From positions 755,190 through 819,189 of the forward strand of contig MU053334.1 in assembly GCA_013239625.1 (NCBI GenBank): a DNA stretch of 64,000 bases, written 5' to 3'. Positions 8,846 to 64,000 of this stretch are shown here, piece after piece. The first letter of the stretch is position 1, and every line of letters starts with the position of its first letter. This DNA comes from Lama guanicoe (taxonomy: Eukaryota). Under the pieces are notes generated by a model. That model searched no databases. It had not been told where the DNA came from and saw only the letters and a program-made list of their open reading frames with translations. A program made the translations under genes and the position numbers.

Positions 8846-8939
8846 CCTTTTTTCTTTTCTAATTGAAGTATAGTCAGTTTGTGATGTGCCAGTTTCTGGT
8901 GTCCAGCATCATGTCTTGAGCCACACACACACACACACG

Positions 8940-8974
<35 letters not shown>

Positions 8975-17358: not shown

Positions 17359-20215
17359 CTGCAGAAGGAGCAGAGAGGGATGTGCGTCAGGGGCCCAGCC
17401 AGCTGGGGTGGGAGAGCCAGAGCACCCCCCTCGACACGTTTCAGCCACACCCGGCCCGGACCCCCAGTCCACATGATGGCAGCCACGGAGCCTCTGCCCT
17501 GAGCACCTGGAGGGCGGCTCTTATGGCGATGGCGCTGCGTGCTGTGCACGTTTACAGCCTGCCCCACAACCACATTCCTCTTCACACTAATTAGGGGCTG
17601 GCCCCATCAAGGACGCCGCTGTGATGCCCGTAAAAGCAGGCTGAGGAGGCTGACCAGCACAGCACGCTAGGGGCCGGGGCAGCAGGGGCTCAGAGGCCAT
17701 GGGGGCCTTCCCAGCAAGGGTTTGTATTCCCAGCCCCTCCACACCCATGCCCTGGGGCTAGGCTGAGCCCTTCTGCCTCTCCCTCCTTGCTTCCCGTTGG
17801 CCGGGAGTCCCAGGCCAGGCTTGGATGCCAAGGCTGGGAGGCAAGGGCATCTGAGGGGGCCCTTCCCCAACCCGGGCATGACATCACCCATGGGAGCTGG
17901 CACAGCCGCAGGGGCACTGGCACTCTGGTTCTGGCTCCATTCCACCCAGCAGAAACTGGGCTGAGAGCTGGGAACCCTGGGGGCTGGGAGCACATGGGCC
18001 ACACGCTCTACACGTGGTTGGTATGTGTCCAGTGGCCTTCCCCGCACGCCTCCTCCTGGGGTACAGGTCCCGGGAGACCCCCTGCCATTCAGAAAGGCCT
18101 GAGAGGGACCCACTGGCACCGTCTGACTCAGCGTGTGACACAGGCCTCCATTTCCTTGTCCTGCCTGTCCCAGGCCCTGCTGCGAGGCTCACAGAAGATG
18201 ACCATGAAACAACCTGGCTGCATGAAGCGGGGGGTGAGGCGGGGGGGTGAGGCGGGGTCCCCAGCACCCTTGCCTGCCCTGGTCCCCAGAAGCAGCTGGT
18301 GCTGGAGACCTGTGTTCCCGAGGACCGAGCTGCCTGGTGACCTCCACCTTCACCCCGGGCCCCGCTCAGTGGCCGTTCTGTACAAGCATCTGACCAGAAT
18401 GCTGGCCATGTGTGCTCCTGTGCCCCCAACCAAAGCATGACTTTGGGGAGCCATTGAGGTGGGGCGCCATCAGCCTTGGAGGGGAAGGGGTCCCTTCCTT
18501 GGGCACCTGCTGGTCGGGCAGGGAGAAGCTGGCGACTGGCACCATGTACAATGTCACAGCTCTCAGGTCCCCACAAGAGGAGGCTGGGCTGAGCTGGGCG
18601 TGGTCAGCTCCTGCTCACCATCCAGAGCTGGGGGACCCCTGGACGCTTCAGCTGCAGGACAGGCCCCAGGAGGCACGGGGTCTGCTCTCCCAGCAGCAAA
18701 GCTGGGCAAGTACGGGGGTGCAGGGAGTTCCACCAGGAACCTCCCTGATCAAAGGACAGTTCTGGCAGGTGCAGAGACCAGTCGGCTCTGCTGCAGTTCC
18801 TCAGGTAAGGCCCCCAGGAAGCCAGTCCAGGCAGAGCAAGGCAGCTAGGGGTGCCCCTACAAACTCCCTATAGACGCCAGTCCTTCCGCAATATCAGGGC
18901 CACCCCAGGCCCTGGGGATGGGTGACAAGGGAGGGCCACCTGGGACAGCACCAGTGCCAGCAACCCGACCCTCTGCTCCCTGCACTCTCAGGGCCTGAGG
19001 TGCCCCTGGCCGTGGCGCTCTCCAGGACACCCGTGCCTCAGGAGGGACCCCGCCACCAACCCTGCTCTCTCTGCTGCGCAGGTCAGAGGAAGCCACACGG
19101 CAGCTCCCAGCCCCTCACAAAGAAATCCCCGACCGGCACAAATGCGCGTGTGGGGGAGGCACTCACTACGCGGCCACCGCCCCCACCGCCCCCACGCGCC
19201 TCCTCTCGCACCACACGCTCCTGCCTGGGTTGGGGGGGTGCCCCCGGTAGCGCCCACCACCCTGCCGCGGCTCCCGGGCTGGGGCTGCACCCACCCTCCG
19301 CGCAGGGGGGCTGCTCTCGCCACGGTCCCTGGCCAGGGTCCGAGGGTGGCGTGCACAGGGCAGGATGGCCTGCAGCGACAACACCAGCCCGCATTCCGCA
19401 GCAGTAGCACAGGGCGCAGGGGCGCAGCCAGCTCCAGGCGGGGCGCCTGCCGCTTAAAGGGCCAGGTTCCCTTTCCCGTCCCTGTCCCTGCTGGACGTCA
19501 CCAGCCGAGCAGCTGTGGGGGAGGGGGGCGTGGCGGTGGTCGCAGCCACGGGTTCTAGGACCGCAGCATGGTCTGTCCCCACTGCCCTCTCCCGCGAACC
19601 TCCCTGTCCTGGAGCTCCCTTCTCTCCCGCTGTGACAGGTGCGCTTCCTTGATGCTCCTCAGCCCCACCCACGGGGGGCGGGGTCTGGTCCTCTCTTCTG
19701 GCCTCTACTGAGGACCCGCCCACCGTGCCAGTGATCCTCAAGAGCCCCTTTCCCCCTTTGGGGTGAGCAGCACCCCTCTAACCTTGCCCCCACCCCTCCC
19801 ATTCTCCATGGTTCAGGCAGGAGCTGTGGGCAAGGCCAGGGGGCTGTCCCCAAGTCTCGGTCCGATATGCTGTCACTATGAGCCATCCTCATACAGTGGG
19901 GTGTGCGGAGGGGTGTCATGACTCCTCCTTGGCCCAGCCCTCAGAGAAATAGGGGCAAATACTCTAACCTTGCAGGGTGACGCAGCTCCAAAGGCTGAGT
20001 GAGCCAGGTGGCCCAGCCAGGTCCCCGTGAGCCCCCTTGGGGCATCCCACCCAACCCAGGCCTGCCTTGCCAAGTTTTGGGTGAGGGCACTGCGCCCCCA
20101 GGGAGACAGACCTTTAGGGAGACAGACCTTTAGAGGCTCCGAGCTTTCGGGGCTCCTCTGGGACCCTCTTCTCAGACTCCCAGAAGGGCCTCTGCTTCCA
20201 CTTCCCTCCAGAATG

Positions 20216-21899: not shown

Positions 21900-23199
21900 C
21901 TGGGGGCCGTGAGGGAGGAGGTCAGGGCACCGCCAGGTACCTGCCACCTGCTGGCCGGCCCATCCCCGCTGCGGCAGTCCAGATGGAAAGGAGGGGCTGC
22001 TGCCACCCTGGTGCCTCGAGGGGGAGGCAAGCTCCCAGCTGAGGTTCACACCTGGACAGGTATAGATGCTGACAGCCACACAGGTGGACCCTCAGAGCTG
22101 GTAGGGCAGGGGACACTCACCCCCATGCAGCCTGCCCCACGCGCACTCACACCGTGAAGGTGACTGAGACGGGGGTAAAGGCAGTGGGGCGCCCCAGGAG
22201 GCGCACACAGGTGCCCGCAAGGGCAGGGGCACGTGGATGAGGCCTGGACGGGCTCCCAGGGCACCTGAGGGAAACAGGCTCTTCCTCAGGCATGTGTCGG
22301 TGGTTTTGAAGGTGGGGTGCCTTTGTGTCTGGGCTCCTTCCCTCCCCAGCTAGTGACTGGGAAACTGAGGACGCAGCAAGCCTTCCCTGCCCGCCCCATA
22401 AGGATTCAGGCAGCAGCCGGAGGCTGGGGCTCCACCTGCTCTCCCCGCCCGCAGTGCCCGCTGGGGCCCAGATGTTGAGTGGCTCCTGCGCAGAGAGCAG
22501 CTGATGCCCCCGCCCCCAAGCACACACAGCCCTTAAGCCAGCTGAGCTGCCAACCCTGGGCCAGATGATGTCACCAGCGGCCAATGGGAGGGCGCTCTGG
22601 CCGGGAGTCCTCGCTGGGGGTTATTAATCACCGGATTCCCCTCATTGGAGGCTGTGGGGAGCCTGTGCTGCCTCGGGGTGGGAGGCTCCCAGCTGGGTCC
22701 TCTCACGTCCCAGCCTGGCACGGGGCAGGGCCTGTGACCAGGACCCCTCCCTCAGCCTCCGGGCTGCCGGGCATGCCACCCCTCCCCCAGCGGAGGAGCC
22801 ACTGCCTTCCCAGGTCCCTGGCCCAGCGGCCCGACCCCAGCACTGGACTTCATACTCCTGGGGTGGGGGAGGCAGAGGCAGGGCTGTCTACTGCAGGCGA
22901 CTGAGCCATTCTTGGGGGCCACAGAGAGAATTCCTGGTCCTCCAGACTCCAGAGGGGAAAGAACGGGGGCTGAGAACACAGACTGCTTGTGTGAGCTCCT
23001 TGGCTACCCCTCCCATCCTCTTCCAAGTCCTCACAGCAGTCAGAGTGAGCCTGAGCCGGCTGCCTACCCCCCCGCCCACCCCCCCGCTGCCCCTCTGCCG
23101 CCTGCCCGCCCCTACCTGGCTGCCCCTGTGCAGGCCACACACGTCCCCTCATCCAGTGCCCCCAGAGCCCTCGCTGGGCCGCGCGGGGCGGGGCGGTAC

Positions 23200-23430
23200 C
23201 TGGCCGCGCACGGCGGGCTGGATCAGCTCGGCGATGGTCACCTTGCCCTGCTGCAGCCGCCGCTTCACCAGCTTGGAGCAGCAGATGTTGACGGAGCTGA
23301 GCACGTGCCCGCTGTTGTACTCCACGAAGGAGCGGCTGTCGATGACCAGCGGCCCCCCGGGCCCGCCCCGCAGCAGGCTGGCCAGTTTCCTGGCGTCCAT
23401 CACCTTCCGAGGGAGCCGGTCCCCGGCCAT
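23200..23430 (-). CDS. DUSP8: DUSP8 exon 2 coding part (whole exon 23200-23537): MAGDRLPRKVMDARKLASLLRGG...KLVKRRLQQGKVTIAELIQPAVRGQ, rhodanese/CH2 domain with MAPK docking motif
   Basis: ATG in GCCATGG context; acceptor ctccctgcag|G at 23537; donor CAG|GTACCG at 23200; 231 nt, phase 0. Confidence 0.97.
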
Positions 23431-28849: not shown

Positions 28850-30060
28850 TTAATTCGTGCCCCTCCCCCACCAAATTAAGAAAGCACTGCAAGAGAAAAG
28901 CGGCGAAGCCGTGGCCGGGTGTGGGCTGGGCCGGGGTCCGCAGGGCGATGCGGGAGGCGGGGGAAGAGCTTATCGGTCCGGTCAGTAGCGTCCCTGCGTG
29001 AGGGGTTAGGGGCCCGCGGGCCGGCACCGCTCACCTCGAGGCCGCCTCCTCCTCCCGGGTGCCCGCCGGGCGCAGCCCCCGAGCGCTCCTGATGCGGCGC
29101 CCACCTAGCCGGGCGCAAGGGCTCCGCGCCGGTTAACCCCCACTCCGCCGGCGCCCCGCGCGCCCCCCGCCCCGCTCACCTCGCTCACGCTCGCCTCCCG
29201 GGCGCACAGGGGACCTGAGCCGCGCTCAGCGCGCCCACTCCTCCGCGCCGCCCATGGGCCCGGCGGGGACCCGCTCAGCTGGGGCCGGGGTCGGGGGAGC
29301 GTGCGGGCCGCGTCGCCGCCGCCGCCGCCGCCGAGCTCTCGCGGCGCGCATCCCACCCCGCGGCTCGGCGGGCGCGGCCGGTGCGACTCCGGCTCGGGCT
29401 CGGGCTCGGGCTCCGGCTCCGGCGTCCGGCAAGGGGGGGCGGGGGGTGAGCCGCGGAGCCGGCTCGGCAGCCGAGCTCGGCCGCGAGTGACAGGCCCGGG
29501 GCGGAGGGCGGGGCCGCCGGCGGGGATGAGGTCATGCCGAGCGAAAAAAGCCCCTGACGTCACCTGCAGCCAATCAACGCGCACGGCTCCGGGGCAGGTG
29601 ACGTCAGCCGGAGCCCGGGCTTCGGGTGCTGATTAGAGGCGGCGGCCGCCAGAGCCAGGGGCGGGCGAGGTAGGGTAGGGGGAGCCGGGCTCAGCGCCGC
29701 CGCCCTGCGCCCTCGGCCCTCAGCCCTCAGCCCTCAGCCCTCACCGGCTCTTAAAGGGGCCGCAAGGCGTTGGGACGTGCCTGAAGCCCGCCTCCGGGAA
29801 GCCCTCCCAGCCCCAGCGCTCGGCCCCACAAAGGGACTCCCCCCTCAGCTTCGCTGCACACACACCCGCAGAGGGTCCGCCTGACCCGGCCCCGAGCGCG
29901 AAGGTCCTCTCCCCGCCGGCCTGGCCGGAGTTGGCCTCCCCTCTTGCGCCCCACAGCCTTTGTTCGTGCGGGGCCTGCCTCCGGGAGAGCCTTCGCTAGC
30001 CGGGGGCCCGGCGCGAGCGCGCACCGCGAGCCCGGCTCTGCGCCGCGCTTTACCTGCGGC
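28850..30060. promoter_or_regulatory. DUSP8 promoter CpG island: two palindromic CREs (29555-29562, 29599-29606), CCAAT (29570-29574), TGAGGTCA (29527-29534), GC boxes
   Basis: Very high CpG density; motifs read directly. Confidence 0.9.
29180..29490 (-). other. DUSP8: DUSP8 exon 1 (5' UTR, in CpG island)
   Basis: Donor GAG|GTGAGC at 29180/29179, just downstream of the CRE/CCAAT/GC-box promoter. A second identical donor lies at 29035. 5' end inferred. Confidence 0.65.
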
Positions 30061-31269: not shown

Positions 31270-32199
31270 CTTGCAGGGGGAGGAGTGTGTTCCTGGCTCA
31301 GAGCCAGCACCTAGGATAACAAATATTACTGGGGTGGAGGAGGGTGGGGAGTGGGGCTGTCCTGGAAGAAAGCACTGGTAACCTAGGGGTTATTTGTGTC
31401 AGGCTGGGTTCAGGTCCTTCCTCTTTCCTACCCCAGGCTGGGCCTCAAAGGAGGAAAGGCCTGCTGAGGAGAGAGGCCCTGGATAGAGGTGGTCCCTGAG
31501 CTCGGGGAGATGCCCAGCCCTGATACATGGCCAGGTCAGGTCAGCGATGGAGTGTGCGGTGTGGTGGGGCTCACTCCATGTCTGAAAAGTGGGGAGGCTG
31601 GGTCCTGGGAGGGTGAGGAGGATTCAGGTGGAGCCTCGCTGCGGTCCTGGTGGCGGGAGCAGGTACTTGAGGCCCTTGGGGAAGCAAGGACAGACCCCCA
31701 AAGGGCCTGGGACCCATAGGAGTGGGAGGATGCAGGCACTGTCCCCTGGGCTGGGAGGATGCTCAGCTCAGTTTGCCCCCCTGCCAGGCCCAGGATGAGC
31801 CCAGTAGAGAGAAGGAAGACAGACCGCCCAAGTGGGCTCTTCTGCTCAGCCTAGATGTGGTCAGTGCCTGCATGTGGCCCCCCGGGCAACTCCCAGCTCC
31901 AGGCCTGAGCAGGGACAGTAAGCTGAGAGGAGGGGTTGGTGTCCTTGTGCCTCTTCTGGGAGAGTGGGGGTGGCATGCAGTACGCCCCACCCCCCGCCCC
32001 ACTGTGTCTGGGCAGCGGAATTTGGGCCATGATTATTTTATTCCTCTGAGAGTCACTTCTCCTGCAAATAAGCATTTAAAGCCTGGGGTTCTGCAAGGAT
32101 GGGGCGGAGGGGGGCGTGGTACCTCCTCTGGAGAGGACAGTGACTGCCAAGGCGACCAACTCTGGCCCTGGGTTCTTTGCAGCCCCAGACCCCGCCAAC

Positions 32200-32580
32200 T
32201 CAGCGCGGCGTCCCCACCTCCCAGGGGCACGGGCGGCTTGGGGAGCGGGCTGCGCGTGGAAGGGACACCTCGCGGCGGTGACTGTTCCCCCGGGGCCCAG
32301 CCTCAGGCTGGGGAGGCCGTGCGGGGCGGGGCCAGCTCCAGGCCTGGTAGGCGCTCGAGGGCGCCCGGCCCGCGCGTGCGGATGCCGCCTCGGGGTCTCC
32401 GCGGTGGAGCAGGGCCCCGCGCAGGGACCGGGAGGCACCGTGGCCGCGCGTGGGGCGGGCCACGCCGGACCTTCGCGATCGCTGCGCGCAGCCCTCGGCA
32501 GGACCCGCGCCTACAGCGGCCAGGTCGGAGTGCGGCTGCCCGGGAGGTCCGTGCGCGCCCCCTGCCGGCCACGTGCGTTC
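32200..32580. other. Orphan CpG island
   Basis: Abrupt CpG-dense 380 bp with no recognisable gene start. Confidence 0.65.
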
Positions 32581-37689: not shown

Positions 37690-40100
37690 CACTACCGCTC
37701 CCTTAAGTGCCTGGAAGTGTTCACTCTCGGAGACATTGGCCCTCTGCTTTCTTTGTGGGAAAGTTTTCCATTACAGACTCAATTTCTTTGACAGAGAAAG
37801 GACTCGTCACACGTTCTGTTTCTTCTGATGTCAGTTGCGATGAACTTGTGTTTTTCAGGGAATTCACGTATTTCATCTAAAGCTTGAAGTTATTCGTGTA
37901 GATTTGTCCTCACACCTAGTTATGGTTTTATTGTGTGCAGAGTATGTCATAGTGTCCCCTTTGCATTTCTTTTAGTTGTGATTTACCTTTTCCTCTGTTT
38001 TCTGGATCAGCATTGCTAGTGGTTTGTGCATTTTATTAATCTTTATGAAGAGCAAACGACTTGGCGATGTTAATTTTCTCTGTTTTACATCTGATTCCGT
38101 TCATTGATTTCTGCTCCCACTTTTATTATTTCCTTTCTTCTCCTTTATTTGAATTCAGTTTGCTTTTCTTTTTCCAGCTCCTTGAGATGGAAGTTTAGAC
38201 AGCTGATTTTCACCTGCTCTCCTTTTCTAATACACGTGTTTTGAGCTGTAGCCTTTTCTCTAAGCACAATGTAGCCGAAGCCAGCAGACTTTGATGTCAT
38301 ATTTACATTGTAAGGCAGTCCAAAATATATCTCAATTTCCACTGGGATTTCTTAGACTTCTGGGTTATATTGAAGTCTCTGACTTAATTTTCGTACATGT
38401 GGGGATTACAGTGAGCTGTCTTTCTCTTACTGAGTCCAAGTTTGACTCCTCTCTGTGAAAGGACATACTCTGTAAGATTTCAATATACATCAATTAGGCA
38501 AGTTGGCTCCTTATGTTGTTCGGGTCGCCTGTATCTTTGCTGACTTTTTATCTCCTTGTTATATCACTTACTGAGAGAGAGTTATTAAAATTCTCAATTC
38601 TGTTTGTGAATTTGTGTACCACTTCTCTTGGTTTTGTCAACATCTGCTTTATGTGTTTGGCAGCTTTGTTATTTGGTGCATAGAAACTGAGGGTCCTTTT
38701 CCTTTTGATCGCATGGCTCTTCCAGCATCGTTGGCTGTTCTTTGTTGTCTCTGATAAGTTTCGTCTTAAAGTCTGTATTACCTGATATTAATATAGCTAC
38801 ACTAGCTTTTTTAGAAAATAAAATTAGTGTTTATAGGATATATCTTTCCCATCTTTTCACTTTCTTCCTTTCTGGGTCCTGATGTTTAAAGCGTATCTTT
38901 TGTAAGTAGTGTGTGGTCGAGTGTCCTTTTAATGTCCCTGCCTGACAGTTGCCTTTTATTGGACTGTTCAGAGTACTAGCATCTACTGTGGTTGCCAACC
39001 TTGTTGGGCTTAAATGGCTGTTTTTATGTTGTATTTCTCTCATCTCTTCTTCCTTTATTCCTCCTTTTCTGTCTTCTTTCGGATTCATCAAATATTTTCT
39101 ATTCAGCTTATCTCTTCTATTGGCTTTTGAGCTATATATTCATATATTATTTCTTAATGGCTATCCTAGAGATTACATTTTACTTTCTTGAAGTCTCATG
39201 ACTTCCTGAACAAGGAGAGAACCTCACCTTTTAATTCCATGTGTTTAATTTCATGTGTTTGCTTATATTTTACGTCTGTGAATGTTAACGATCTTACTGG
39301 ACATTAATGTACTGTTTTAGGCAGTTAATTTTCTTTTGTTCTTACCAGCCTATTTAGCCTCTCCATCGCGCTTTACTCACTCCTGAGGTTCACTCCCGTA
39401 CAGCTACTTTCCTCCAGCTCGAAGAGCTTCCTTTAGTGTTTCTTGTGGTGGAGATCTTTCAGCTGAAGACAGCTATATTCCACTTACATTTTGAAGGTGA
39501 TTTTCATTAGGCATAAAATTCCACATTGGCAGTTTTCCCTTTCAGCCCTGAAAAATGTCTTTCCATTTTCTTCTGGATTCCATCATTTCTGTTAAAAAGT
39601 CCACCGTCATTCTTACAATTGCTCCTTCAGAGATAATGTGTCCTTGTCCTCCTGTTGCTTTTACAATTTTTAAAAATTGACCTTTTGTGCTTGAAAGGTG
39701 CCCTGTGGTTAGCCCCTGTGTGATTTTCTATTTATTTACTCTGCTGTGAGTGTGCTGAGCCTCTTGAATCTGTAGGCTCATGGTTTTCATGAATTCTGGA
39801 AAAATATACCATTATACTATGTCTTCAACATAGCCCTTGCTCCATTATTCCTCCCTTCTCTCTCTGGGAGTTCAGAAATGTGTTTTAAACTATGTTTTGC
39901 ATTTCTCATGCTCCATTCTATTTTTATTTTCAACATTTTTTCTTTCTGTGTTTCAATTAGCGTATTTTCTATTTATATATCTTTGAGTTCTCTGAACTTA
40001 TTTTTTGTTGTTAAATTTGTCCCATGAGTCATGAATTTTAGGCATTTCCACATAGTGCATTTTTCAATATTAGAATGTCCATTAACATTTAAAAGTATAT
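37690..40100 (-). mobile_element. Ancient LINE-1 ORF2 remnant
   Basis: T-rich plus strand with L1 antisense motifs (gatattaatatagctacactagcttt, atatctttcccatcttttcactttc); no intact ORF. Confidence 0.7.
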
Positions 40101-40944: not shown

Positions 40945-41310
40945 TCAGATCTTGCGCTGGCAGCAAACGGGGACACAGCAGCTGGACTGGGAGCAGCAGG
41001 GTTTGCAGCAGCTGGACTGGCAGCAAACGGGGACACAGCAGCTGGACTGGGAGCAGCCACAGGAGCCACAGCCCCCTTTGCCACAGCTGGAGCAGGAGCA
41101 GGTGGGCACACAGCAGCACACGGGCACACAGCAGCTGGAGCCACAGCCCCCCTTGCAGCCCCCGCAGGAGCCACAGTCCCCCTTGCCACAGCTGGAGCAG
41201 GAGCCACAGCCCCCCTTGCCACAGCTGGAGCAGGAGCAGGCGGGCACACAGCGGCACACGGGCACACAGCAGCTGGAGCCACAGCCCCCGGAACAGCCAC
41301 AGTGACTCAT
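40945..41310 (-). CDS. KRTAP5: Keratin-associated protein 5 family member (ultra-high-sulfur), 121 aa, intronless
   Basis: [19 protein letters not shown]...CGKGGCGSC...[27 protein letters not shown] start; TATAAA at 41402-41407; AATAAA at 40534-40539. Paralogue number cannot be assigned. Confidence 0.95.
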
Positions 41311-47455: not shown

Positions 47456-48046
47456 TCAGATCTTGCACTGGCAGCAAATGGGGACACAGCAGCTGGACTG
47501 GGAGCAGCAGGGTTTGCAGCAGCTGGACTGACAGCAAACGGGGACACAGCAGCTGGACTGGGAGCAGCAGGGTTTGCAGCAGCTGGACTGACAGCAAACG
47601 GGGACACAGCAGCTGGACTGGGAGCAGCCACAGGAGCCACAGCCCCCTTTGCCACAGCTGGAGCAGGAGCAGGTGGGCACACAGCAGCAGATGGGCACAC
47701 AGCAGCCAGAGCCACAGCCCCCCTTGCAGCCCCCGCAGGAGCCACAGCCCCCCTTGCAGCCCCCACAGGAGCCACAGCCCCCTTTGCCACAGCTGGAGCA
47801 GGAGCAGGCGGGCACACAGCGGCACACGGGCACACAGCAGCTGGAGCCACAGCCCCCCTTGCAGCCCCCGCAGGAGCTACAGCCCCCCTTGCAGCCCCCA
47901 CAGGAGCCACAGCCCCCCTTGCCACAGCTGGAGCAGGAGCCACAGCCCCCCTTGCCACAGCTGGAGCAGGAGCAGGCGGGCACACAGCGGCACACGGGCA
48001 CACAGCAGCTGGAGCCACAGCCCCCGGAACAGCCACAGTGACTCAT
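47456..48046 (-). CDS. KRTAP5: Keratin-associated protein 5 family member, 196 aa, intronless
   Basis: Cys/Gly/Ser repeats [26 protein letters not shown], ending CCQCKI*; TATAAA at 48138-48143; AATAAA at 46950-46955. Confidence 0.95.
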
Positions 48047-49439: not shown

Positions 49440-51420
49440 AAAAAAAATCTGCTGGGATTTTAATTGACTGCAATAATCAATGTTTGGAAAACTGACATCT
49501 TGGCAACATTGAGCCATGAAATCTGGGAATAGGAGATAGCTTTCCATTTTTAAATTCCTCTTCAATATCTTTCAATAATGTTTTGTGATTTTCATTTTAG
49601 GGGTTGTGTATTATTTTATACAATTTATATTGCTAGGTGAATGATTTTGGGGGGATGAGTTAGAAACGATTTTTAGATTTTAATATAAATAACTATGTAT
49701 TTTAAAATTTAACTTAAATTTCTAATTGCTGTTCTTAGCATATATGGAAAATTAATTTTGTATTGATTGGTTATCCAGTGATCTCGCTAAATTTACTTGC
49801 TTATTGCAATACTTTATTTATAGATTATTTTGGATTTTATTTTGTGTTTATCCATATCTTACCTTCCAGGAATTTCTTGCCAGATTATAGTCTACATTAA
49901 AAATTATGACTTTACTCCTTCACAAAGAAACCAAGAAAAGCACAAGAGTTCGGCTCCGTCCGCCCTGCTGCTGACTTGCCCTCACGTGTTTCTCTTGTCC
50001 ATGTATTGCAAACCCCAGAAGCTGTATTTTTAAGCTGTTACTTTGAATGGTCATTGTACGAGCCTGCTTTGGCTGGAATGCCAAGGCACCACAGCCCCGG
50101 TGTCTTAACAACAGGCACTTATCTTCCTAAAGTTCTGGAGGCTGGCGGTCCAAGCTCAAGGACGATTCTGGGCGAGACCCCGCTTTCTGGCTTGCAGCTC
50201 GCCGCCTTCGCGCTGTGCTGTCACAGGCCCCCCTTGTGTGAGGGGACACTGCGGGGCAGGCTCAGTTGTCTGGCGTCTCTTCCTCTTCTTCTCGGGACAC
50301 TAGTCCTATAGAGTTAGGACCCACCCTATTACCTCATTTAACCTTAATTTCCCCTTAAGGGCCGTCTTTCCGAATACCGCATTAGGGCTTCAACCTGTAA
50401 ATGTGGGGGGCACGACTCAGCCCATACATGGTCGTTACTCCTTTGTATTTACCCGCAGACTCACACTTTGTAGTGGTCTTCCTGGAAATGTCTGTTTTTT
50501 ATGAGACCACTTCCCTTCAACCTGAAGAACTTCTTTCAGTATTTCTGGAAGTGTGAGTCTGCTTGTGAAGCATTTTAGTTTTGTCTTCCTGAAGATGTCT
50601 TTATGTAATCTTCATTTTTGAAAAATTACTTTTTTTGAAAATGGAATTTTCAACACAGAATTGTTCACTAACCATTTTCGTCGTTCATTCCTTTAGAGAC
50701 GGCGTTCCACTGCCTTCTGGCCCCCATAGTTTTTCCTGCAGAGTCAGCTCTACATTTTACTGTTCCTTCTTTGGGAGTCATGTGCCATTTGTTATGCTCT
50801 TAAAATTTAAAAAAACCCTTTGTTTTTCAGAAGGTGGTCATTATGTAGCTAGGGTTTTAAAGATGTGTTCTTCTCGGGTGTTACTGAGCCTCCTGAAGCT
50901 GTGGGTTGGTGTCTTCTGTCAGTTCTAGACCCTACGTAACCCCTGTCCTTTCAGTATTGCGTTTGCCCATTTCTTTCTCCTTTCCCTCTGAGCTGCCAGT
51001 TATACTTCTGTTTCTGTCTGATGCACCTTTTGCACCCATTGATTTGTTCCCGTTCTTATTTCTCTCTGTGCTTTAGCTTGGGTGTTTTCCCGTGGACTCA
51101 TTTTCGCGTTCCCTAATCCCGTCTTTTGCTGTGTCCAGTCAGCTGTGAAAGCTAGCCAGTCAGTTCTGAGTTTTATATATTATACTTTCCAGCTTTAGAA
51201 TGTCCATTTGATTCTATTTTTATGGATACCATTTTGGTAGAATTTTTTCATTTTTTTCATCTAGTTTGTCCATCTTTTCTCCACAGTATATTTAATTTCA
51301 GGTCCTTGCCAGTTAACAGCAAATTCTGAGTCATTTTTGTCTGCTTTTATTACATTTTTTCTTTTGATTATTAGTCCCATTTTCGTATTTCCTTTTATGT
51401 CTAGTAATGTTTCGCTGTAC
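49440..51420 (-). mobile_element. Ancient LINE-1 remnant with nested MaLR LTR (~50070-50430)
   Basis: ctgctgggattttaattg..aactgacatctt; MLT motif cttaacaacagg..ttat..agttctggaggctgg..gtccaag. Confidence 0.65.
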
Positions 51421-54288: not shown

Positions 54289-54530
54289 TCTGGGCTTGTC
54301 CTGGCAGCAAATGGGGACACAGCAGCTGGACTGGGAGCAGCCACAGGTGCCACAGCCCCCTTTGCCACAGCTGGAGCAGGAGCAGACAGCCGCCACTGCT
54401 GGAGCCACAGCGGCCCACGGTTCTGCTGGGTGGGGGTGGGGGGGCAGTCCAAGGAGCAGATGGAGAGAGAGGGGGTTGTTCAGGTGTGGAGCCTCCGGGG
54501 CCAGGAAACTACACACCTGCCAGGGTGTGT
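54289..54530 (-). pseudogene. KRTAP5 pseudogene
   Basis: Homologous leader AGAACC is followed by GTG instead of ATG (54416-54418). There is a large internal deletion with frameshift, residual [28 protein letters not shown], a lost stop (CAG GAC AAG CCC AGA vs CAG TGC AAG ATC TGA) and a destroyed TATA box. Confidence 0.88.
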
Positions 54531-54724: not shown

Positions 54725-55900
54725 GTGTGGACTGCACGTGACCTGTGACGACAGCCTTGCATCCAGGTTCCCTTACCTCGGATCTACTGGGAATTTTGCA
54801 GGTGTGATTAAATTCAGTCCTGCGGTAGAGAGACCATCCTGGGGGTTCTGGGTGGGCCTGAACGTAAGCCCATGTATCATCATGGGACAGAGGCGGGGGG
54901 AGCCTGGCGCACGCAGAGGAGGAAAAGGCGGTGTGCAGACGCTGCCTTGACCGTTCGAGTGGTGTGGCCACAAGCCACGGAGGCTGGCAGCCACCAGAAG
55001 GGAGGGGAGGTTTGCAGAGGGAGTGCAGCCTTGCTGACAGCTGCCTTAGTGGGACGAATGGCCTCCAGGACTGTGAGGGTGAGAATATATTTCTGTTATT
55101 TCAAGCCATCATATTTGTGATGACTTGTTGCAATGGCCACAAGAAAAAAAAAATACAGATTTTGGTGACGGGAAGCAGTTTGCTGTTGTAAGTACCTGAA
55201 AACGTGGAGGTGGCTTTGTTAAGAGGGTCATGGGTGGGGGCTGCAAGGCTTTTGAGGTGTATGGTAGCAAAAGCCTGGATTACCTCAAACGAGCGTTCGG
55301 TAGGAATACGGACGTAAAGGTGCTTTATGACAGAACACACGCACGTGAGAAACATGCTATTGGAGACCGGAGGAGGGGGGACCCTCGTTACAGACCGGCA
55401 GAAAACAAAGATGAATGTTTTCTGGACTTTCTAGGCACCACTTAGAAAGTGATGAATTTGGCTGTTAGCTGAGGGGTTTCCTAGCAAAGAGTTGGAACCT
55501 AGTTTCTTCTTGCTCCTTACAGTAAGACGTGAGGGGAATGAGGTAAATCTAGGAAAGAACTGTTAAGCCAAGAGGAACCAGCCCTTGAATATTTGGGAAT
55601 ATTCCAGCGTGTTCAGATTGCAACAGATGCTAAGAGTAGCCGTTCGGAAGGCGCGCCCCGCGGAGGAGGCCGGCGCGCGCCGGGACAAACTGTTCCTGAA
55701 GGGACTGGGCCGGCGGTTCCTGGACCGGCTCAGCCGCGGCCCAGAAGTCAGTCCAGAGGCTGGGCTGCTCGGCGAGGGGCCGCGAGGACCCGCTGGTCCA
55801 GCTGCGCGCGCGCGGCGCGGCCCCCCGCGTGGGTGAGCCGGGCTGTCTCCGCGCAGACGGCCGCCCTCCCGCCTGGATGGCAGAGCCTGCGTGAGACGCT
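54725..55900 (+). mobile_element. MaLR element: LTR (~54725-55155) followed by internal sequence
   Basis: LTR end tttctgttatttcaagcca..tttgtga..ttgttgcaatggccac..aataca is directly followed by the MLT1-internal start gattttggt..gctgttgtaagtacctgaaaacgtggaggtggctttg. Confidence 0.75.
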
Positions 55901-56075
55901 GGGGCCCGGTGCTCTTCACGAGCACACAGCCCGGGACGGTAGCATTTGCGGGTCTGGCTTTCCACGCACCGCGTCGTCCTGGCGGCCGGGGCCGCGAGGC
56001 CCGGAGCCCCCGCGGGCGCCGCGCGGCCCGCTGCTTCGCGCACAGAGGCGTCGCGCTTGCTTGAGCGAATCTGGC
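55640..56075. other. Orphan CpG island within MaLR internal sequence
   Basis: CpG-dense block in AT-rich repeat DNA. Confidence 0.75.
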
Positions 56076-56229
56076 ATCGTTTCGAGCTGAAACTCTTGGT
56101 TTTAAGATCTCTGTGCGTCCTCTGGTTTTTGGGGCCCAACTCAGAAAGAGTGTGCATATATCTGAGTTGATAATTAGAATAAGAAATCACAGTAATTTAC
56201 AGATTTAAAGAACTGACGAATACCGACAA

Positions 56230-59200
56230 ACGTGGGAAAAACCCTTATATTTTGTTGAATGAATTGCCTGAACTCCCCCCGCCCCGCCCACCTCACAGCA
56301 CTTTTCCCCACTGGTTTTTGGCCACACGTCCTTCCGTCACTTCTTCATATGACAGCAATTTTATAACTTCGTTTTCTAAAGAGGGACTAGGAAAACATAC
56401 TAGTTTCTCAACTCTATCGTGGCTGCGTAAGATTTGTTTTTTTTTACTGTCGATTTTGAAAATTTCTTTTAGTCTCATGGTATTGTCATACAGGTTTTTA
56501 GGTTTGCTGTCAAATCTGGGAAAATACTAATTCAAACTTCAGGACAGCGGCATTCTGTGTGCTGGTTAGTCTTACATTCTCTTCTGCTTAACTACACTCG
56601 TCGATCTGTTCACGATGACGTCCTCGTTAGAGTGGGCTGTTATGGGTTTTATAACACCTTTGGCTGCATCAATATTTTTACGTCCAATTAGCAGGAAACT
56701 TAAATCTTTCCCAAAATATTTAAATGATTCACTGTTATACATCAATCAGATTTTCAAATAATCTATGAGCCTTTATTACTTCTGCTTGAATGTCTCTCTT
56801 TATGAATTCTGCTGTTGGTGTGATATGAAAATTTTGCTACATTTGGGTCTCCTGTCGAAATGATTTATAGCTTGTTTTTATCATGTTTATTTCACATTTT
56901 ATTACTTTTGGTGAGAAGTACCTCTCAGTTCTTTCATAAATAAACGTAAAGATGACAAAGGAATGCTTGCTTTATATACGTTCAACCCAGCGTCCCGTAC
57001 TTCCTCCCTTTTTAACTGGAAAGTTCAAAAGGTATTTCCGAACTGCAGTTCAGAAGGCACATTGGTACTGGAACAACTTTTTTTTCTTGAACAACTTTTG
57101 TATACTGTTTGTGTTCAGCTTTCTCTTCTGAATTTTTGAAGACACGTTTCAGAGTTTTTAGAGTATTGAACCCATGTTGTAAGCCTTGAACAGCCTTATG
57201 CTGGGCAGACCACCGTTACCTCTAGATTCTTTAGAGAAAAATGCCAGTTGACACGTGGCTTCTTAAGGATGGACCTGGAGCAAGTTAGGAAGGAGCTGCC
57301 TTCAGTGGCCTGGGGGCAGCCTTGTTCTGCTGTGACCGAGGCCAGGAGGTGGCTGGGCACGGCGCTCTGCGTGGACACCCTTACCTACGTGGTGTTCTGT
57401 GATCGTGAATGCCCTCCAAGGAAGGGCTGGTTACAGTCATCTGCAAGTTTTTTCACTTTTTGAATAAAGCTGTGGGTGGATGGTGCTGAGTTGGTGGAGA
57501 TGTTCAGTGCAGCCGATAAGGTCTTCTGTTTCCGCTGCAACGCGCAAGTCTTGCGGGCGAATCAGGGACCACCGTTTGCGAAGGAGGACGTTTGGCAGTG
57601 GGGATGTATTTCGTATCTGGCTTATTTTATTTCATGTATCGGTTTATTTTGTACACGTCCTTATTTAATTGGGTTGACTTTTCATCAACTGTTTTGGATA
57701 AATGAGGCACACGTGCTTTTACATTTTGACATCTTTTTAAGGGCTCTGCGAAATGGATCCAGCCCAGGATTTGGTTAATTTTGATCAACGTTCCAAAATG
57801 TCTTTAAGAAAAAAAATATACGCTCTCTTGGTGTTGGGAACCGTGCTCTGTATACGTTCAGGAGGCTAAGCTGCTGTTGGATGATTTGAATTTTCGGTCA
57901 TTGTGCTGACGTTTTATATTTTCAGTCTCATAATTACTGAGAGAAGCTTGTTAAAAACCTGCAGTGCTTGTAACCGCGGGGTCATCACTTTCTCCGTGTA
58001 ACCCTCCCATTTTTGTCTTCGATATTTTTGTGTGCTTTATATATTTGAATGCATGCAGTTTCAGGAACGAACGTCTTACCTTCCTTGTGAATTTGCCCTT
58101 TGATCATGAATTGAGAGGCGTTTATCACCGTCTCCTTTTCCATTCTTCCCACCCCCACCTCCCTCTTCTGTAACTTTGCCTTGAAAGCCTGCTTTGATGT
58201 TAAAACATAACTATATGCATTTTCCTTGGTTAATATGTTCCTATTTCTTTATTCTCAGCATTTCCATGGCATTTTGTTTTACAACTATTCTCTTAACAGA
58301 TTAAAGAAAACGAACCTGCAGATTTGTCTTTGAAGTGATGACTTCACTTCCTTTTGGGGGGAGGGGAGTGTTGATACATTTTTCTTTCTTTCTTTGCGGG
58401 GGAGGGATGTTTTCCAGTCACCGTACTTTTTCTTTGCTTCCTTGTTGTATTAATCTAGCTTTTCATTTTTTATGTTCACCCCAGCTGGAGCCTCCAGGCT
58501 CTGTGAAGGTGTGTAATTTATTTCTCCTGCTTTGGTGGGAGGTCTTAGCTGCGTGCCCGGAGACCTGCTGTGGGTGACTTGTGGGCGTGGCGTGGAGAGC
58601 TCACCGGCCGCTCCCTGCAGGCTCGCCCCGAAGGCGAAGGCGGGAGCCTGAGCAGGGGAGGGGCGGCTACGAGCGCGCAGCCCGGGGAGGAGGCGCCGTC
58701 CGCGCGGCTCCCGCCAGCGCTGCTGGCCCCTCGCTGGGCGCTGGTCCCCACACCGGGCGCTGGTCCCGCGCCGCACCGGGCGCGGCCCCGGCCCCGGGCC
58801 CCGCTGCGCCGCCGGGACCTGGGAGGGCTGCGCCCCCGAAGCAGACCCGTGGGGGCCCTGCTCCCCGCACCATTAGTCTCTGATGCGGTGCCCGGGGCCG
58901 GCTAGGTGGGCAAGCCTCGGCCTATGTCCCCCTGAGAGGACGGTCAGGAGGGAGGCTATCGGCCCTCTGACTTCCGTCCTGAGAGACAGGGCCGTCCTCT
59001 CCCGGAAGCGTCCCTGAGGAACCCCCCAGACACAGGAGGCGGCGCCGGAGCCCGTCGGCCCGCCGCCACGACGCCCTCCGCCACCGCCTTCAACACGGAG
59101 CGAGCGCGGGGCTGGGTCCGAGCCCGGGGCCCCCGGGCAGGCCTGTGAGCCGAGTGGCCAGAGGGTCCCGGCTCCCGCGACCGACCCCCGGGGCCACGCG

Positions 59201-60100
59201 AGCCGCCTCGCCGGGGTGCTGGCTCGGGCGCTCTCCGCGCGCGTCCTGCTCTGCGCCGTCCGCAGGCCACGTGGCTTGCGCGCGCGCGCGCCCCCGGACT
59301 GGGCTTTCCCGCCTCCCCAAGGGCCTGCGGGGCCCGGGGGGCCGGCCACGGGGCGGCGGCGGCGGGCTCTCTCGTCTGAGCGGAGCGGAGCGGCGTTTCC
59401 ACTTCGCGCCTAGCTGGTGCAGACGGCCTTGCTGGGCGTAGAACCCCAGACCGACAGCGGTCCGCTTCCTCCTGGTGCTCGATGTCCCCCGCGTCTCCCG
59501 CCCCCTCCTTTCCAGTTGAGAAGTCTGTTGCCAATGGAAGCATTAGTTAGTCTTTCTGCTCTGGTAGTTCCAGAGGTTTGCTATTTGCCGTCGTGTTCTG
59601 AAGTTTTACTGTGATGTGGCCAGGTTTGGATTTATGTAAATTTTGTTTATCATGTTTTGGCCTTGAGATTATTCAGTGTGAAATCCATCCTTTTATCCAT
59701 TCTGGATAACTGTTGTTTCCAAATGTCGGATTTTATCCGTAATCTCTGTTCTCTCCCTCCGCAGCTTGTGTAAGAAGTATGTTGAAACTTTTCATTGTAT
59801 TCTTCATGTGTCTTAAGGTTGTTTTCATATTTAAACATTTTTCTATGCTGCATTCCAATCAATTTTCTTTAACATTTGCCCTCTGTTCAGCATCTCTCTC
59901 TGAAGCTGTATCTACTCTTCTGTTTACTGGTCCTTTGGAGTTTTAATTTTAGTGACATTGTGTTTATATTGATAATTCTCTATGAACATTCTTACAAAAT
60001 TTTCTGTTTGTTCTTTAAATATTTAAACCTTTGATAGATCCCAAGTTTTCCTCTTTAAAAGTCATGTGTGATAGCTCTCCTTGTGCATAAGTCTTTGTGT
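56230..60100 (-). mobile_element. Ancient LINE-1 remnant(s) enclosing a CpG island at ~58540-59510
   Basis: L1 antisense motifs on both sides (aattactgagagaagcttgttaaaa; gttgagaagtctgttgcca; tccattctggataactg). Confidence 0.6.
58540..59510. other. Orphan CpG island within old L1-derived DNA
   Basis: ~1 kb CpG-dense block flanked by AT-rich L1 sequence. Confidence 0.8.
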
Positions 60101-60234
60101 TCATTTGCAGTTTTTCCCTTAGAATATATTTCTCGAAGGCTCATTGCCAGGCAAGTGGGTGCGCACATCTAAAGTGCTGATAAATGTGTGTCTCAAGCTG
60201 GTTAGTTTTGGTGAGTCGTAACCACCCATATAGT

Positions 60235-60700
60235 GCATGGGTTCAAGTCCTACCGCTGCAGCACAAGTCACCACAAACACGGTGTCTCAGCACAGCCCCT
60301 GGAGGCCAGAGCATCGCCAGGCGGCGGCCAAGGAACACAGGGCCGTGTTCCCGCTGGAGGCTGGAAGGAAGGCTCTGCTCCTTTGCCTCCTCTGATTTCA
60401 GGAGTCCACCTGCTTCCCTAGGCTCCTGGCTCTCTTCTGTCTTCCAACTGCAGCACCCTGACCTCTGCTTTTGTGGTCACATCTCCCTTTCTGACTCTCA
60501 AAGGACCTTGGTATAAAGCTTCTGTCTTTTAAGACCCTGATGGTTACACTGGGCATACCAGAATAATCCAGGACAGCCTCGCATCTCAGCCCTCAGCTTA
60601 AGCACACCTGCAAAGCGACCCTTGCCACATGTGGTAACATATTCACAGGTTCCCCAGGTCAGAACATGCATGTCCTCGAGGGGCCGTTATTCTGCTGCCA
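60235..60700 (-). mobile_element. MaLR LTR (MLT1-type)
   Basis: ttttaagaccctgatggttacactgggc..ataatccaggaca..cacctgcaaag..ttgccacatgtggtaacatattcacaggttcc. Confidence 0.75.
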
Positions 60701-61309: not shown

Positions 61310-63760
61310 ATTTTAAAAAATTTTTTGGTAAGAAATACATACCATAAAATTTAAAATCTTAGCCATTTTAAAACGTACAGTCCAGCAGTGTTAGGCATAT
61401 TTACATGGTTGGGAAACAGGTCTCCAGAACCTTTCCATCTTGCAGAACTGAGACTCTATACCCATCAAAGCCAGCTGCCCTCCCCCTCCCCCTCTTCCCA
61501 GCCCCTACAGCCACCACTGTACTTTCTACATCCATGAATTTGGCTACTTTGGAGACCTCATATAATTGGAATTACATACTATTTGTTTTTTTGTGACCGA
61601 CTTTTTTCATTAGTCTAAAATCCTCAAGGTTCATCCATGCTGTAGCCTACGGCGGGACATTCCCCTTTTGCGTCTCCATTCACCCACCTGTGGACACTGT
61701 GTTGCTTCCACTTCTTGGATGCTGTGAATAGTGCTGTTATGAACATGGGTGTGCAGACATTTCTTTGAGACTGTCCTTTTGATTCTTTTGGATGTATACC
61801 CAGAAGGGGAGTTGCTGGATCGTATAGTGGTTCTATTTTTAATTGTTTTGAGGTGCTGCCGTACAGTTTTCCACAGTGGCTGCGTCATTTTATAATCTCG
61901 CAAAGTGTGCACGAGGATTCTGACTTCTCTGCATCCCTGCCAACACCTGCTGTTTTCTGTTTCTTTAATGGCATGCATCTTCCTGGGGATGAGGCAATAT
62001 TTGTCAGACACACAACTTGCAAATGCTTTCTCCCATTCTGCAGCTGCCTTTTCACTCTGTTGCTTGCTCCCGTTGCCGTGCAGAAGCTTTTCGCTTTGAC
62101 GCGATATCGCTTGTCTGGTTTTGCTCCTGCTGCCTGTGTTTTTGGTGTCTTATGCATGAAACAATTGTCAAAACCAATATCATAAAGATTCCCCCTATGT
62201 TTTCTTCTAGGAGTTGTGTAGTTTTGGGGTTATGTTTAGGTCTTGAATCCATTCTGAGCTGAATTTTGTATATGGCACAAGGTAAGGGTGCAGTTTTGCT
62301 CTTTTGAATGTGGAGATCCAGCTTTCCTAATGCCATGTGTTGCCTAGATCGTCCTGTTCCCGAGGGGTTCTCTTAGTGCCCTGGTCGAAGGGCATTCGAT
62401 CCTGTATGTGAGGGTTTACTTCTGGACTCTCTGTTCTTCCCATCTCTGTCTCTATGCCAGTGTCACACTGTTTTGATTACTGTAGCTTTGTAACCTGTTT
62501 TTGGAATCAGGAAATGTGAGTCCTCCAATTTTGTTCTTTTCCCCAAGCTGTTTGGCTGTTTACTGACAGTTTATTGAGGGTTTTTGCAGCAATGTCCGTT
62601 GAAAGTATTGGTCTTTAGCTTTCCTTTCTTGTTGTGTCTTTGGTTTTGGTGTCAAGATAATGCTGGTCTCAGAATGAATTTGGAAGTGCTCCCTCCTCTT
62701 CAGTTCTTTGGGAAAGTCTGAGAAGGAGTGGTGCTAATTCTTCCTCAAGTGTTTGATAGAATTCTGGTTCACTCTCTGGTCCTGGGCTTTGTCAGGAGGC
62801 TTTGAGTTCCTGATTTAATCTCGTTGCTAGCTATCGTTCTGTTTAGAGCTTCCTTTTCTGCACAGTTCGGTCTTCGGAGATCGTGTATTTCCAGGAACTT
62901 ACCCCTTCCTCTAGGTTATCCAACTTGCTGGCACACGATTGCTCACAGTATTCTGTTATAATCTTTCTTTAGTTTCTGTGGCATCATTTGTAATATTCCC
63001 TTTCACTTCTGATTTAGTTACTTGAGTCTTCTTTCTGTTTCCTTAGTTAATCTAGCTACGGGCTTGTCCGTTTTTCTACTGGCTTTCTATTCTGCAGTTC
63101 ATTAATTTGTGCTCTAATATTTATTATTTCCTTCCTTCTGCTGGCTTTTGATTTCGCTCTCCTTCTTTCTGTAGTTCCTGTAGAGCTAGTTTGTTAATTT
63201 GAGACCTTTTTTCTTTTGTAATGTACGAGTTTATAGCGAAACTCTCACCCGCACGGCCGTCTCTTCTTTTGCTATGTTTTAGTGTGTTGTGTGTTCATTT
63301 TCATTAGTCTCTTGGTATTTTCCAATTCCTCTTATGACTTCTTTACTCATTGGTTATTTGAGAGTGTGTTGTTTAATTTTCACAGACGTACAGATTTTCC
63401 AGTCTTCCTTCTGTTATGGATTTTAAACTTCACCCTGTTGTGGTTGGAGGAGATACTTCATATGGTATCTGGTGTTTTACACCTGTTGAGCCTGTTCTGT
63501 GGCCTGACATGTGGTCTGTTCTGCAAAGGGTTCCATGTGCACGTGAGAAGAATTCGTACTCGGTCTTCTTTGAGTAGAGTGTTCTGTGCACGCCTGTGAG
63601 GTCCGGTTTTTAAGCCGTGTGGCGCCTCTGCCTCCTTTCGCTCCTCCGTCTTGCTGCCTGCCGTTGTTGAGAGCGAGGCACCGCAGCCTCCTGCTCGTGT
63701 TGTGCTGCGGCTTCTCCTTTCAGTTCTGCCAAAGTTCGCTTCATGTATTTAGGCCGATGT
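61310..63760 (-). mobile_element. LINE-1 (L1M) 3' UTR + ORF2 remnant
   Basis: catacataccataaaattt..tagccattttaaa; ggatgtatacccagaagg..gttgctggatcgtatag; minus-strand peptide QLLEENIG. Confidence 0.8.
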
Positions 63761-63784: not shown

Positions 63785-64000
63785 TTTTAGTTGAAATATA
63801 GTTGATGTACAACATTATCTTAGTTTCAGGTGTACTTCCTACGTTTGCACACATCATGAAGTGGCCCCCACGGTAAGTCCAGGAACCACCTGTCCCCATA
63901 CAGAAGCTATTACAGTGCTGTTGCCCTGTTCCTCGTGCTGTGCCTCACACCCCCGCGGCGTATTTATGTAACAGCTGGAGGTTTGTACCTACTAACCCCT
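63785..64000 (-). mobile_element. LINE-1 3' end running off the window
   Basis: ttgaaatatagttgatgtacaacattat..agtttcaggtgtac. Confidence 0.7.

Follow-up and report, generated by a model that had tools for sequence, protein, structure and literature searches.

A CpG island apparently rewritten in part from an old LINE-1 fossil in Lama guanicoe: a candidate product of GC-biased gene conversion

A gene-distal CpG island set in what appears to be an AT-rich transposon fossil raises the question of whether it was inserted there, preserved there, or made in place by directional change of the fossil itself. The window analyzed here is a stretch of 64,000 nucleotides from the camelid Lama guanicoe (contig MU053334.1 of assembly GCA_013239625.1), in which three KRTAP5-type genes and DUSP8 lie upstream of the island. 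The orphan island proposed in a preliminary description of this DNA does exist: at 58540-59530, with no strand assigned, it spans 991 bp and holds 123 CpG, with a GC content of 0.759 and a CpG observed/expected ratio (o/e) of 0.86, between flanks of GC 0.41-0.42 on either side. CpG islands are commonly defined by a length of at least 500 bp, GC above 0.55 and o/e above 0.65, and the sequence passes on length, GC and o/e. The ratio of GC in 500 bp to that in the surrounding 10 kb reaches 1.60 at centre 59250 (where the background loses 250 bp to the end of the window) with a runner-up of 1.47, the island being the sole peak of at least 1.5 among the 8 top GC peaks listed for the window. Outward from the island, in 100-bp steps, GC falls through 78-56-44-40-28% to the left and through 80-68-48-34% to the right.

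The label "gene-less" holds as far as it was tested. Pfam searches with six frames of the core gave no E value below 0.9, a word-based protein search found no homologue of the 195-aa island ORF, which is a chance product expected of GC-rich DNA, and Rfam returned nothing inside the island and a single sub-threshold match outside it. Internal duplication of the island was not significant either (28, 243, 235, and 230 of 300 shuffles).

The AT-rich homologues previously reported at ~39470-39605 and ~50580-50750 were recovered as parts of two minus-strand remnants of old L1 elements matching ORF1p, which served as references: copy A (38470-40090), comprising the end of ORF1, the inter-ORF region and the start of ORF2, and copy B (50505-51215), an ORF1 remnant. 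Positions 39441-39832 of copy A (minus strand) match the solved LINE-1 ORF1p 2ldy (E 1.4e-7), nhmmer aligns copy A with copy B (E 8.8e-20), and an ORF1 profile scores 107 bits on A and 36 bits on B. Pfam searches over 1 + 24 frames gave nothing meaningful, copy A included, and a word-based protein search with copy A gave no match; motif scans for L1 copies outside the window returned 0 loci in viral contigs and 6 metagenome loci, all non-L1 and none matching the window. We take the fossil to be an L1M-type old mammalian LINE-1.

The right edge of the island, where the strings quoted earlier were located (59430-59533), carries a putative remnant of the L1 ORF1 C-terminal coding region on the minus strand (59331-59533). 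L1 homology at this edge, on whose absence the preliminary description was prepared to fall, is present, with a modest signal. By nhmmer, copy A matches 59431-59862 collinearly (E 6e-4), and composition-corrected local alignment places copy A on 59331-59468 and 59407-59533, in each case with 0 of 100 local shuffles scoring as well. Within these alignments, a near-ungapped block (copy A 39481-39609 against 59407-59533) has 64 of 127 positions identical, a value reached by none of 500 shuffles, the best of which had 63 identities, and its share of transitions was equalled by 14 of 500. The ORF1p P0022, from outside the window, scores higher on the island minus strand than on 300 of 300 local shuffles, in a match ending at 59349, although its score of 22 is no higher than the top chance matches elsewhere in the window (22.4 and 22.6). 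Shuffling blocks of 59350-59549 lowers the score by 13-19 units. Several searches were silent: copy B alone gave no match at 0 of 100 shuffles in the island block test, a PDB search with the island frame gave 0 matches, the ORF1 profile (24/25 proteins) missed the rewritten part and scored, at 1-3 bits, the AT-rich shoulder 59565-59648 alone, and a plain blastn search of the window with 57000-60300 found nothing beyond matches to low-complexity GC sequence and a single piece of L1 (E 0.03). The island L1 is about 50-68% identical to its window paralogues in the best blocks.

On both sides the fossil appears to continue. To the right, 59534-59990 (minus strand) is the AT-rich continuation of the same ORF1, with 59773-59862 aligning at 0 of 100 shuffles and a weak BLASTP match to P0022 (E 0.045). 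To the left, a minus-strand remnant at 57809-57960 is collinear with copies A and C, a third L1 copy in the window: 57877-57960 aligns with copy A and 57809-57872 with copy C, each at 0 of 100 shuffles, with a further match at E 0.07 and no Pfam match. This remnant, judged by its position, is presumably the 5′ part of ORF2. To the right of it, 58030-58600, which reaches into the island, gave no significant alignment with copy A (88-92 of 300 shuffles).

The core of the island (58560-59330, no strand assigned) occupies the putative inter-ORF position and behaves differently. Its GC content is 0.71-0.82, and blocks of 150 bp from copies A, B and C (29 + 11 + 13) gave no significant match in 58450-59330, a region that only one window paralogue spans. 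Shuffling core blocks costs at most 4.2 score units, and the pyrimidine skew has gone, with a pyrimidine fraction of 0.50-0.52 against 0.66. Comparison of the core with the other islands of the window gave no convincing match. A 55-base core match to 32120-32178, seen in 1-2 of 1000 shuffles, was taken as chance because it came from one of 12 comparisons and falls on bases that are not as rich in GC. The missing homology of the core is not decisive, since saturation would erase the L1 signal and one old paralogue alone spans the core. From sequence comparison, then, an L1 origin is established for about 59331-59533 only, roughly a fifth of the island: the claim that the island was built out of an L1 stands for its right ~200 bp and fails to find detectable L1 homology in the 770-bp core.

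Within the right edge, the differences from the paralogues run mainly from A or T to G or C (W>S), as had been proposed. With polarity taken from paralogues A and B, which are ~55-60% alike, and not from orthologues, the W>S:S>W counts on the island lineage were 47:4, 45:4, and 36:4 under three aligner settings, whereas the distal flank, used as control, gave 35:34, 35:34, and 30:29 (Fisher p 9e-7 and 4e-5). The shoulder at 59536-59650 showed a mild W>S excess (14:5, 14:5, and 15:9), with balance beyond it. Expressed per column, 47 of 78 ancestral W positions turned S in the island against 35 of 124 distally, and 4 of 36 ancestral S positions were lost against 34 of 61. The near-ungapped block alone has 45 W>S changes (30 of them transitions) and 8 S>W. 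GC at 59331-59533 is 0.71 compared with 0.39 in copy A and 0.37 in copy B, and these ~200 bp of ORF1 contain 25 CpG compared with 2-4 in the paralogues. Any GC-rich sequence aligned to an AT-rich one will automatically show a W>S excess, and it is therefore the homology, with its modest signal, that carries the case.

The explanation favored here, to which we give a probability of about 0.62, invokes GC-biased gene conversion (gBGC), the known source of such directional change with tapering GC shoulders, at a recombination site that would be long-lived and probably hypomethylated, and for which a GC-rich core of different origin may have acted as seed. An old L1, inserted in antisense across ~57800-60000 and evident at both ends, would have harbored a site that became a long-lived focus of meiotic recombination. 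Gene conversion would there favor G/C alleles, and a hypomethylated germline patch would lose few CpG, so that GC would have been pushed from ~37% to 70-80%, tapering over 200-300 bp per side. We infer the recombination, gBGC as the cause, the hypomethylation and the independence from PRDM9. The core may be inter-ORF DNA of the L1, saturated and expanded, or else an inserted GC-rich sequence from which the hotspot started.

The second of these options can be put more strongly, and in that form it is a tentative but serious competitor, held somewhat short of even odds: a GC-rich insert of ~500-600 bp, such as the 5′ end of a retrocopy, the promoter of another element, or GC repeats expanded by slippage, would have landed in the L1, stayed unmethylated and drawn recombination, the flanking L1 alone being rewritten. 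The offset to copy A indeed changes from 19366 on one side of the island to about 19915 on the other, making the element ~550 bp longer than copy A, and the core lacks both L1 signal and pyrimidine skew. Micro-repeats that change length also vary between camelids, as in a short tandem-like GC segment (58748-58808, plus strand) of 59 bases here and 18 in the camelid run X17. Against such an insert, no source was found among the Pfam, protein and Rfam searches, GC climbs gradually from both sides with no sharp edge, a single window copy spans the inter-ORF region, and saturation would erase the skew too. Inter-ORF length may, moreover, vary among old L1 subfamilies. The seeded island is a variant of the favored explanation, and it runs against the idea of an island built out of L1.

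A cause other than a stable hotspot, namely germline loss of methylation combined with a regional GC-favoring regime, or repeated short-lived PRDM9 hotspots, seems unlikely. The end of CpG decay alone cannot drive GC to 0.8. Nevertheless, W>S bias recurs across the window, whose overall GC is 0.55: copy C shows 42:13, and in rough alignments the L1 tails at 8850 (22:3) and 63785 (15:4) are biased as well. The effect at the island is focal, however, with the distal flank 120 bp away balanced and four SINE copies, presumably of a camelid SINE, unbiased (5:5, 4:5, 2:4, and 4:3). In favor of such a cause, strong gBGC in episodes is to be expected genome-wide (PMC4510005).

Comparison with relatives bears on the age of the island and on whether it has been conserved. 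The island was found in 16 whole-genome runs of 5 organisms, with 0.83-0.96 of its words, and the more distant camelid run X17, ~4% diverged in the flanks, already carries it, so it is not recent. The rate estimate requires 3-13 times the split time from X17 for its formation, and most of the change is older than that split; the description of the island as new is therefore doubtful. Divergence from X17 is 54/871 (6.2%) at 58408-59337 against 39/1042 (3.7%) in the left flank (p 0.014), which indicates a raised local substitution rate. GC-rich DNA diverges faster through composition alone, and this explains part of the increase. The 125 differences from X17 overall are close to even in direction: 58 have S in the window and W in the other, and 46 the reverse. 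Among the core differences listed, 6 of 10 hit a CpG of the window, a pattern that decay of CpG in the other lineage would explain as well as gain here would; at 59040, the single listed core site where the window stands alone against three concordant runs, a T>C gain creates a CpG. Outgroup-type polarity was available from camelids at 5 positions common to X17 and a close run (among the 40 of 139 variant positions listed), giving 3 W>S, 1 S>W and 1 W>W on the window lineage.

The age of the island would also suit an old conserved regulatory island, orthologous to a CpG-rich element of the DUSP8-KRTAP5-IFITM10 interval, with its GC held by selection and hypomethylation. It predates the camelid split, with a rate estimate that implies a much earlier start, and the human element OREG0020670, 3 kb telomeric to KRTAP5-6, is described as having CTCF sites and differential methylation (PMC8282625). 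This reading is nonetheless quite improbable: divergence lies above that of the flanks and not below, promoter and CTCF motifs are not enriched over shuffles, and selection acting on a handful of motifs would leave the conversion of 60% of W columns unexplained.

The proto-promoter suggested in the preliminary description likewise found no support, in either motif enrichment or a splice joint. Among 7 motifs, including CTCF-core, GC-box, E-box, ETS and NRF1, none exceeded shuffles, a weak test because the DUSP8 island, used as control, also showed none. The RNA-type runs X17 and X19, examined as contigs, which cannot show starts or strand, contained no splice joint, the only joint being a 59-base replacement. 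In RNA from X17 all 30 of the 30 bins are covered to an even depth, as DNA carry-over would give, and in that from X19 23 of 30 are covered, with deeper pieces at 57459-57806 and 58567-58748 and none over 58810-59373; loose ends in X19 look like template-switch adaptor. These data are evidence neither for nor against transcription. Also quite improbable is the most ambitious form of the hypothesis, in which the whole kilobase, core included, would be inter-ORF and ORF1 DNA of the L1, saturated by a self-reinforcing PRDM9-independent hotspot that the camelid line kept at a single position over tens of millions of years. The island would by now be a working promoter or enhancer beside the KRTAP5 genes, close to where the H19/IGF2/INS chromatin domain ends. 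GC gain would yield an unmethylated island that attracts more breaks. If true, the making of a regulatory island by a neutral process could here be dated and read base by base.

That the L1 likeness of the right edge arose by chance, or that the island is an assembly error, is very improbable despite the modest homology scores and one stray, non-collinear block that also reached 0 of 100 shuffles, because three approaches put the match collinear, with L1 matches of the same offset flanking it, and the whole stretch is contained in one contig of run X16, which differs at 13 positions.

On the favored reading, the island clearly illustrates, at one site, a recombination-linked process that is already known, and it is not a new kind of element; orphan islands made by gBGC have been reported in dog and suggested for further mammals. 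GC-peaks in dog, defined as 500-bp windows at least 50% above their 10-kb background, and dog-specific CpG islands have been explained by gBGC (Berglund et al., 2014, PMC4350167). The present island resembles them at a ratio of 1.60, being ~1 kb long, non-genic, CpG-rich and W>S-biased, but its host is a camelid and not a PRDM9-null canid. The word "repeat" is absent from the main text of the dog paper, whose islands are not traced to transposon fossils. gBGC has also been proposed as a source in the turnover of orphan CpG islands (Kocher et al., 2024, PMC11170920); those covered there are similarly gene-distal, whereas here an AT-rich transposon would have been rewritten after insertion instead of bringing in a CpG-rich promoter. 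Placental mammals have been reported to carry PRDM9-independent hotspots at hypomethylated loci (Joseph et al., 2024, PMC11161765), and the slow-moving, hypomethylation-dependent gBGC predicted there to make CpG islands GC-rich would fit this island, although the estimator of that study is, by its own statement, not suited to a single locus. Camelids were not found in its main text or supplement, as far as these were covered, and a literature search surfaced no camelid study of such hotspots; the present case points to this group. Taken alone it is one further example, with only a fifth of the island apparently traced to L1. Repeats supply the ancestral sequence without outgroups, however, so islands lying in AT-rich fossils directly reveal the building of CpG islands by gBGC and allow it to be dated. 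With other old LINE-1 fossils this one shares a minus-strand ORF1 remnant and a collinear downstream remnant; it differs from them in carrying ~200 bp of ORF1 at GC 0.71 and ~550 bp of extra sequence.

The CpG island at 58540-59530 has a GC content of 0.759, 123 CpG and a CpG o/e of 0.86, against a GC of 0.41-0.42 in either flank, with GC declining across 200-300 bp both to its left and to its right. The surrounding DNA is mammalian and contains a DUSP8-like gene on the minus strand (exon ORFs at 23149-23430 and 16919-17290), so named from its peptides, and a large CpG island near 29000-30000. Cysteine-rich, KRTAP5-type ORFs are located at 40945-41310 and 47456-48046, and tRNA-like SINEs, presumably resembling camelid SINE, at 35588 and 44751. 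A partial KRTAP5-like repeat about 4 kb left of the island (54289-54400), with no full ORF among those listed, is probably a pseudogene fragment.

Two AT-rich old L1 copies on the minus strand, copy A (38470-40090) and copy B (50505-51215), match each other and an ORF1 profile made from 24 of the 25 retrieved proteins, and copy A also matches the solved LINE-1 ORF1p (39441-39832, minus strand; E 1.4e-7). Used as query, copy A recovered 59431-59862 (E 6e-4) and 57885-57973 (E 0.07). Since an alignment of GC-rich with AT-rich DNA always appears biased toward A/T to G/C changes (W>S), log-odds scores corrected for local composition were used and judged against 11 control stretches and 100 shuffles of the blocks. 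Five of the 29 copy A blocks were equalled in 0/100 shuffles: one was a non-collinear stray and four were collinear, falling at 57877-57960 (offset 19366) and at 59331-59468, 59407-59533 and 59773-59862 (offsets 19899-19926). In this composition-corrected test the same held for none of the 11 copy B blocks and for one of the 13 blocks of copy C, another L1 in the window (57809-57872). Within the near-ungapped block at 59407-59533, 64 of 127 positions are identical, a count reached by 0/500 shuffles (best, 63). A near-complete outside ORF1p (P0022), applied as a codon model, scored 21.9 on the minus strand of the island, above 300/300 shuffles, and the match ends at 59349. The same model gave 41.7 for copy A and 33.6 for copy B, and because unrelated places in the window reach up to 22.4-22.6, the island score is supportive only through its position. 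PDB and profile searches did not detect 59331-59533. Modest but concordant, this similarity shows that about 59331-59533 is the C-terminal part of L1 ORF1. Six loci picked from metagenomes by an L1 motif scan, five of them related microbial loci of ~43-50% GC with the scan motif in common (L001, L002, L003, L004 and L006) and one AT-rich (L005), had no match in the window.

In three-way alignments with copies A and B, where the ancestral state is that of old paralogues and not of orthologues, W>S exceeded the reverse changes (S>W) on the island lineage by 47:4, 45:4 and 36:4 at 59331-59535 under three MAFFT modes. Over the 115 bp that follow, the ratio dropped to 14:5, 14:5 and 15:9, and farther out to 35:34, 35:34 and 30:29 (Fisher p 9e-7 and 4e-5, 59331-59535 versus the distal part). 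The direction claimed for this L1 edge in the preliminary description is therefore borne out, with 36-47 changes versus 4 and about 1:1 distally. Roughly three in four W>S changes at the right edge are transitions; this segment has a GC of 0.71 and 25 CpG, as compared to 0.39 and 2 in copy A and 0.37 and 4 in copy B.

The same description had derived the island as a whole from L1. The island is real and its right edge L1-derived, but an L1 origin of the core (58560-59330) was not recovered, no block of copies A, B or C (29, 11 and 13 blocks) matching 58450-59330 significantly. In global alignment, shuffling any 100 bp in 58450-59349 costs at most 4.2 units, versus 19 and 13 in 59350-59549, and the core has no match among proteins, Pfam or Rfam. 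Saturated L1 is possible, since the core occupies the place proper to the inter-ORF region; a GC-rich insert or a slippage expansion is about as likely. The element exceeds copy A by 550-600 bp between anchor matches. The pyrimidine fraction is 0.50-0.52 in the core, as against 0.66 in the inter-ORF region of copy A and 0.56 where ORF1 has been rewritten; transition-driven rewriting should retain such a skew unless saturated. Moreover, a 59-base tandem-like segment is 18 bases long in X17, a sequencing run from a distant relative, so length does change in the core. Seeding of the core by other DNA, a variant within the reading based on GC-biased gene conversion (gBGC), receives somewhat less than even odds. 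No internal duplication was found as its source. An assembly artefact is ruled out, because 0.83-0.96 of the words of 57400-60200 are present in 16 of the 24 listed runs (five coded organisms) and a single contig of run X16 covers the whole island stretch with 13 differences from the window.

X17 carries the island with identical layout, and its 125 differences are near balance (58 with S in the window and W in X17, 46 the reverse), so the island is older than the split from that lineage. Should X17 belong to the other camelid tribe, as it may, the split would date to 11-25 million years ago (PMC4884201). Under a simple rate model, today's ORF1 composition takes 13, 6.5 and 3.3 split times when the W>S boost is set to 5, 10 and 20, respectively, so that rewriting either set in well ahead of the divergence of living camelids or was exceptionally strong. 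In the left flank, 39 of 1042 bases (3.7%) differ between X17 and the window, versus 54 of 871 (6.2%) in 58408-59337 (p 0.014); with the right shoulder included, the approximate figures are ~95/1400 versus 50/1378 (p 2e-4), one piece being a subtraction across two runs. This faster divergence, in part expected from composition, argues against strong constraint. The site-level comparison covers 40 of the 139 variant positions. Among these, ten lie in the core (seven S in the window and W in X17, one the reverse, two S/S) and six of the ten touch a window CpG, a pattern compatible with continued gain here or with CpG decay in the other lineage. At five of the 40, a close run shares the X17 state and the window stands apart; on the window lineage three of these are W>S (59040, 59570 and 59678), one S>W and one W>W, too few to decide.

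The locus combines L1 ancestry of the right edge, directional change, taper, persistence and raised divergence. Most likely, with a probability of roughly 0.62, these result from gBGC at a putative long-lived focus of recombination, probably PRDM9-independent, in DNA that would be hypomethylated in the germline. Berglund et al. described 28,947 GC-peaks in dog, of which 72% are CpG islands, and concluded that gBGC likely generates new islands in dog (PMC4350167); under the same definition the camelid island is a GC-peak with a ratio of 1.60, the runner-up in the window reaching 1.47. In their work on the turnover of orphan CpG islands, Kocher et al. proposed gBGC as a source of such islands (PMC11170920). 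PRDM9-independent, hypomethylation-dependent gBGC has been reported across placentals by Joseph et al. (PMC11161765), in whose main text and four supplementary files, among possibly more, camelid terms do not occur, and episodic strong gBGC was predicted by Glemin et al. (PMC4510005). Among open-access papers, judged by titles and abstract openings, none dealt with this locus or with gBGC in camelids.

As to the interpretation advanced earlier, L1 ancestry and W>S direction hold at the right edge, but nothing supports a proto-promoter. None of seven promoter motifs exceeded shuffles in the island, a weak test in which the DUSP8 island likewise had none, and RNA-type contigs over the island, which cannot show starts, contain no splice joint. 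Run X19, whose RNA nature is a guess, has short contigs at 57459-57806 and 58567-58748 (depth 60 and 65, more than in the pieces around them); the loose end at 57459 resembles an adaptor, and no joint connects the two. A conceivable orthologue in human is OREG0020670, a CpG-rich CTCF element with a differentially methylated island, found 3 kb to the telomeric side of KRTAP5-6 (PMC8282625).

Within the region, the island is the most extreme case of a more general tendency. In copy C, W>S:S>W is 42:13 at 63550-63720, versus 17:15 for copy A and 14:19 for the island left flank there; this patch lies in a younger L1 copy and reaches 66% GC. Rough four-way alignments gave biased L1 tails at 8850-9085 (22:3) and 63785-63990 (15:4) and two further tails without bias (8:6 and 2:5), and the bias was absent in all four SINEs compared. 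A second gene-less patch at 55600-56100 (GC 62-80 and 10-17 CpG per 100 bp, peak ratio 1.40), without paralogue within the window and in surroundings which we take to resemble MaLR-type LTR-element internal sequence, may have been rewritten like the island. The tail at 8850 adjoins an island at 7700-8700. A small CpG island at 32200-32560 abuts an L1 tail and a SINE, and the L1 tail at 32595 has 7 CpG versus 1 in the 44540 copy, its W>S count being unremarkable (8:6).
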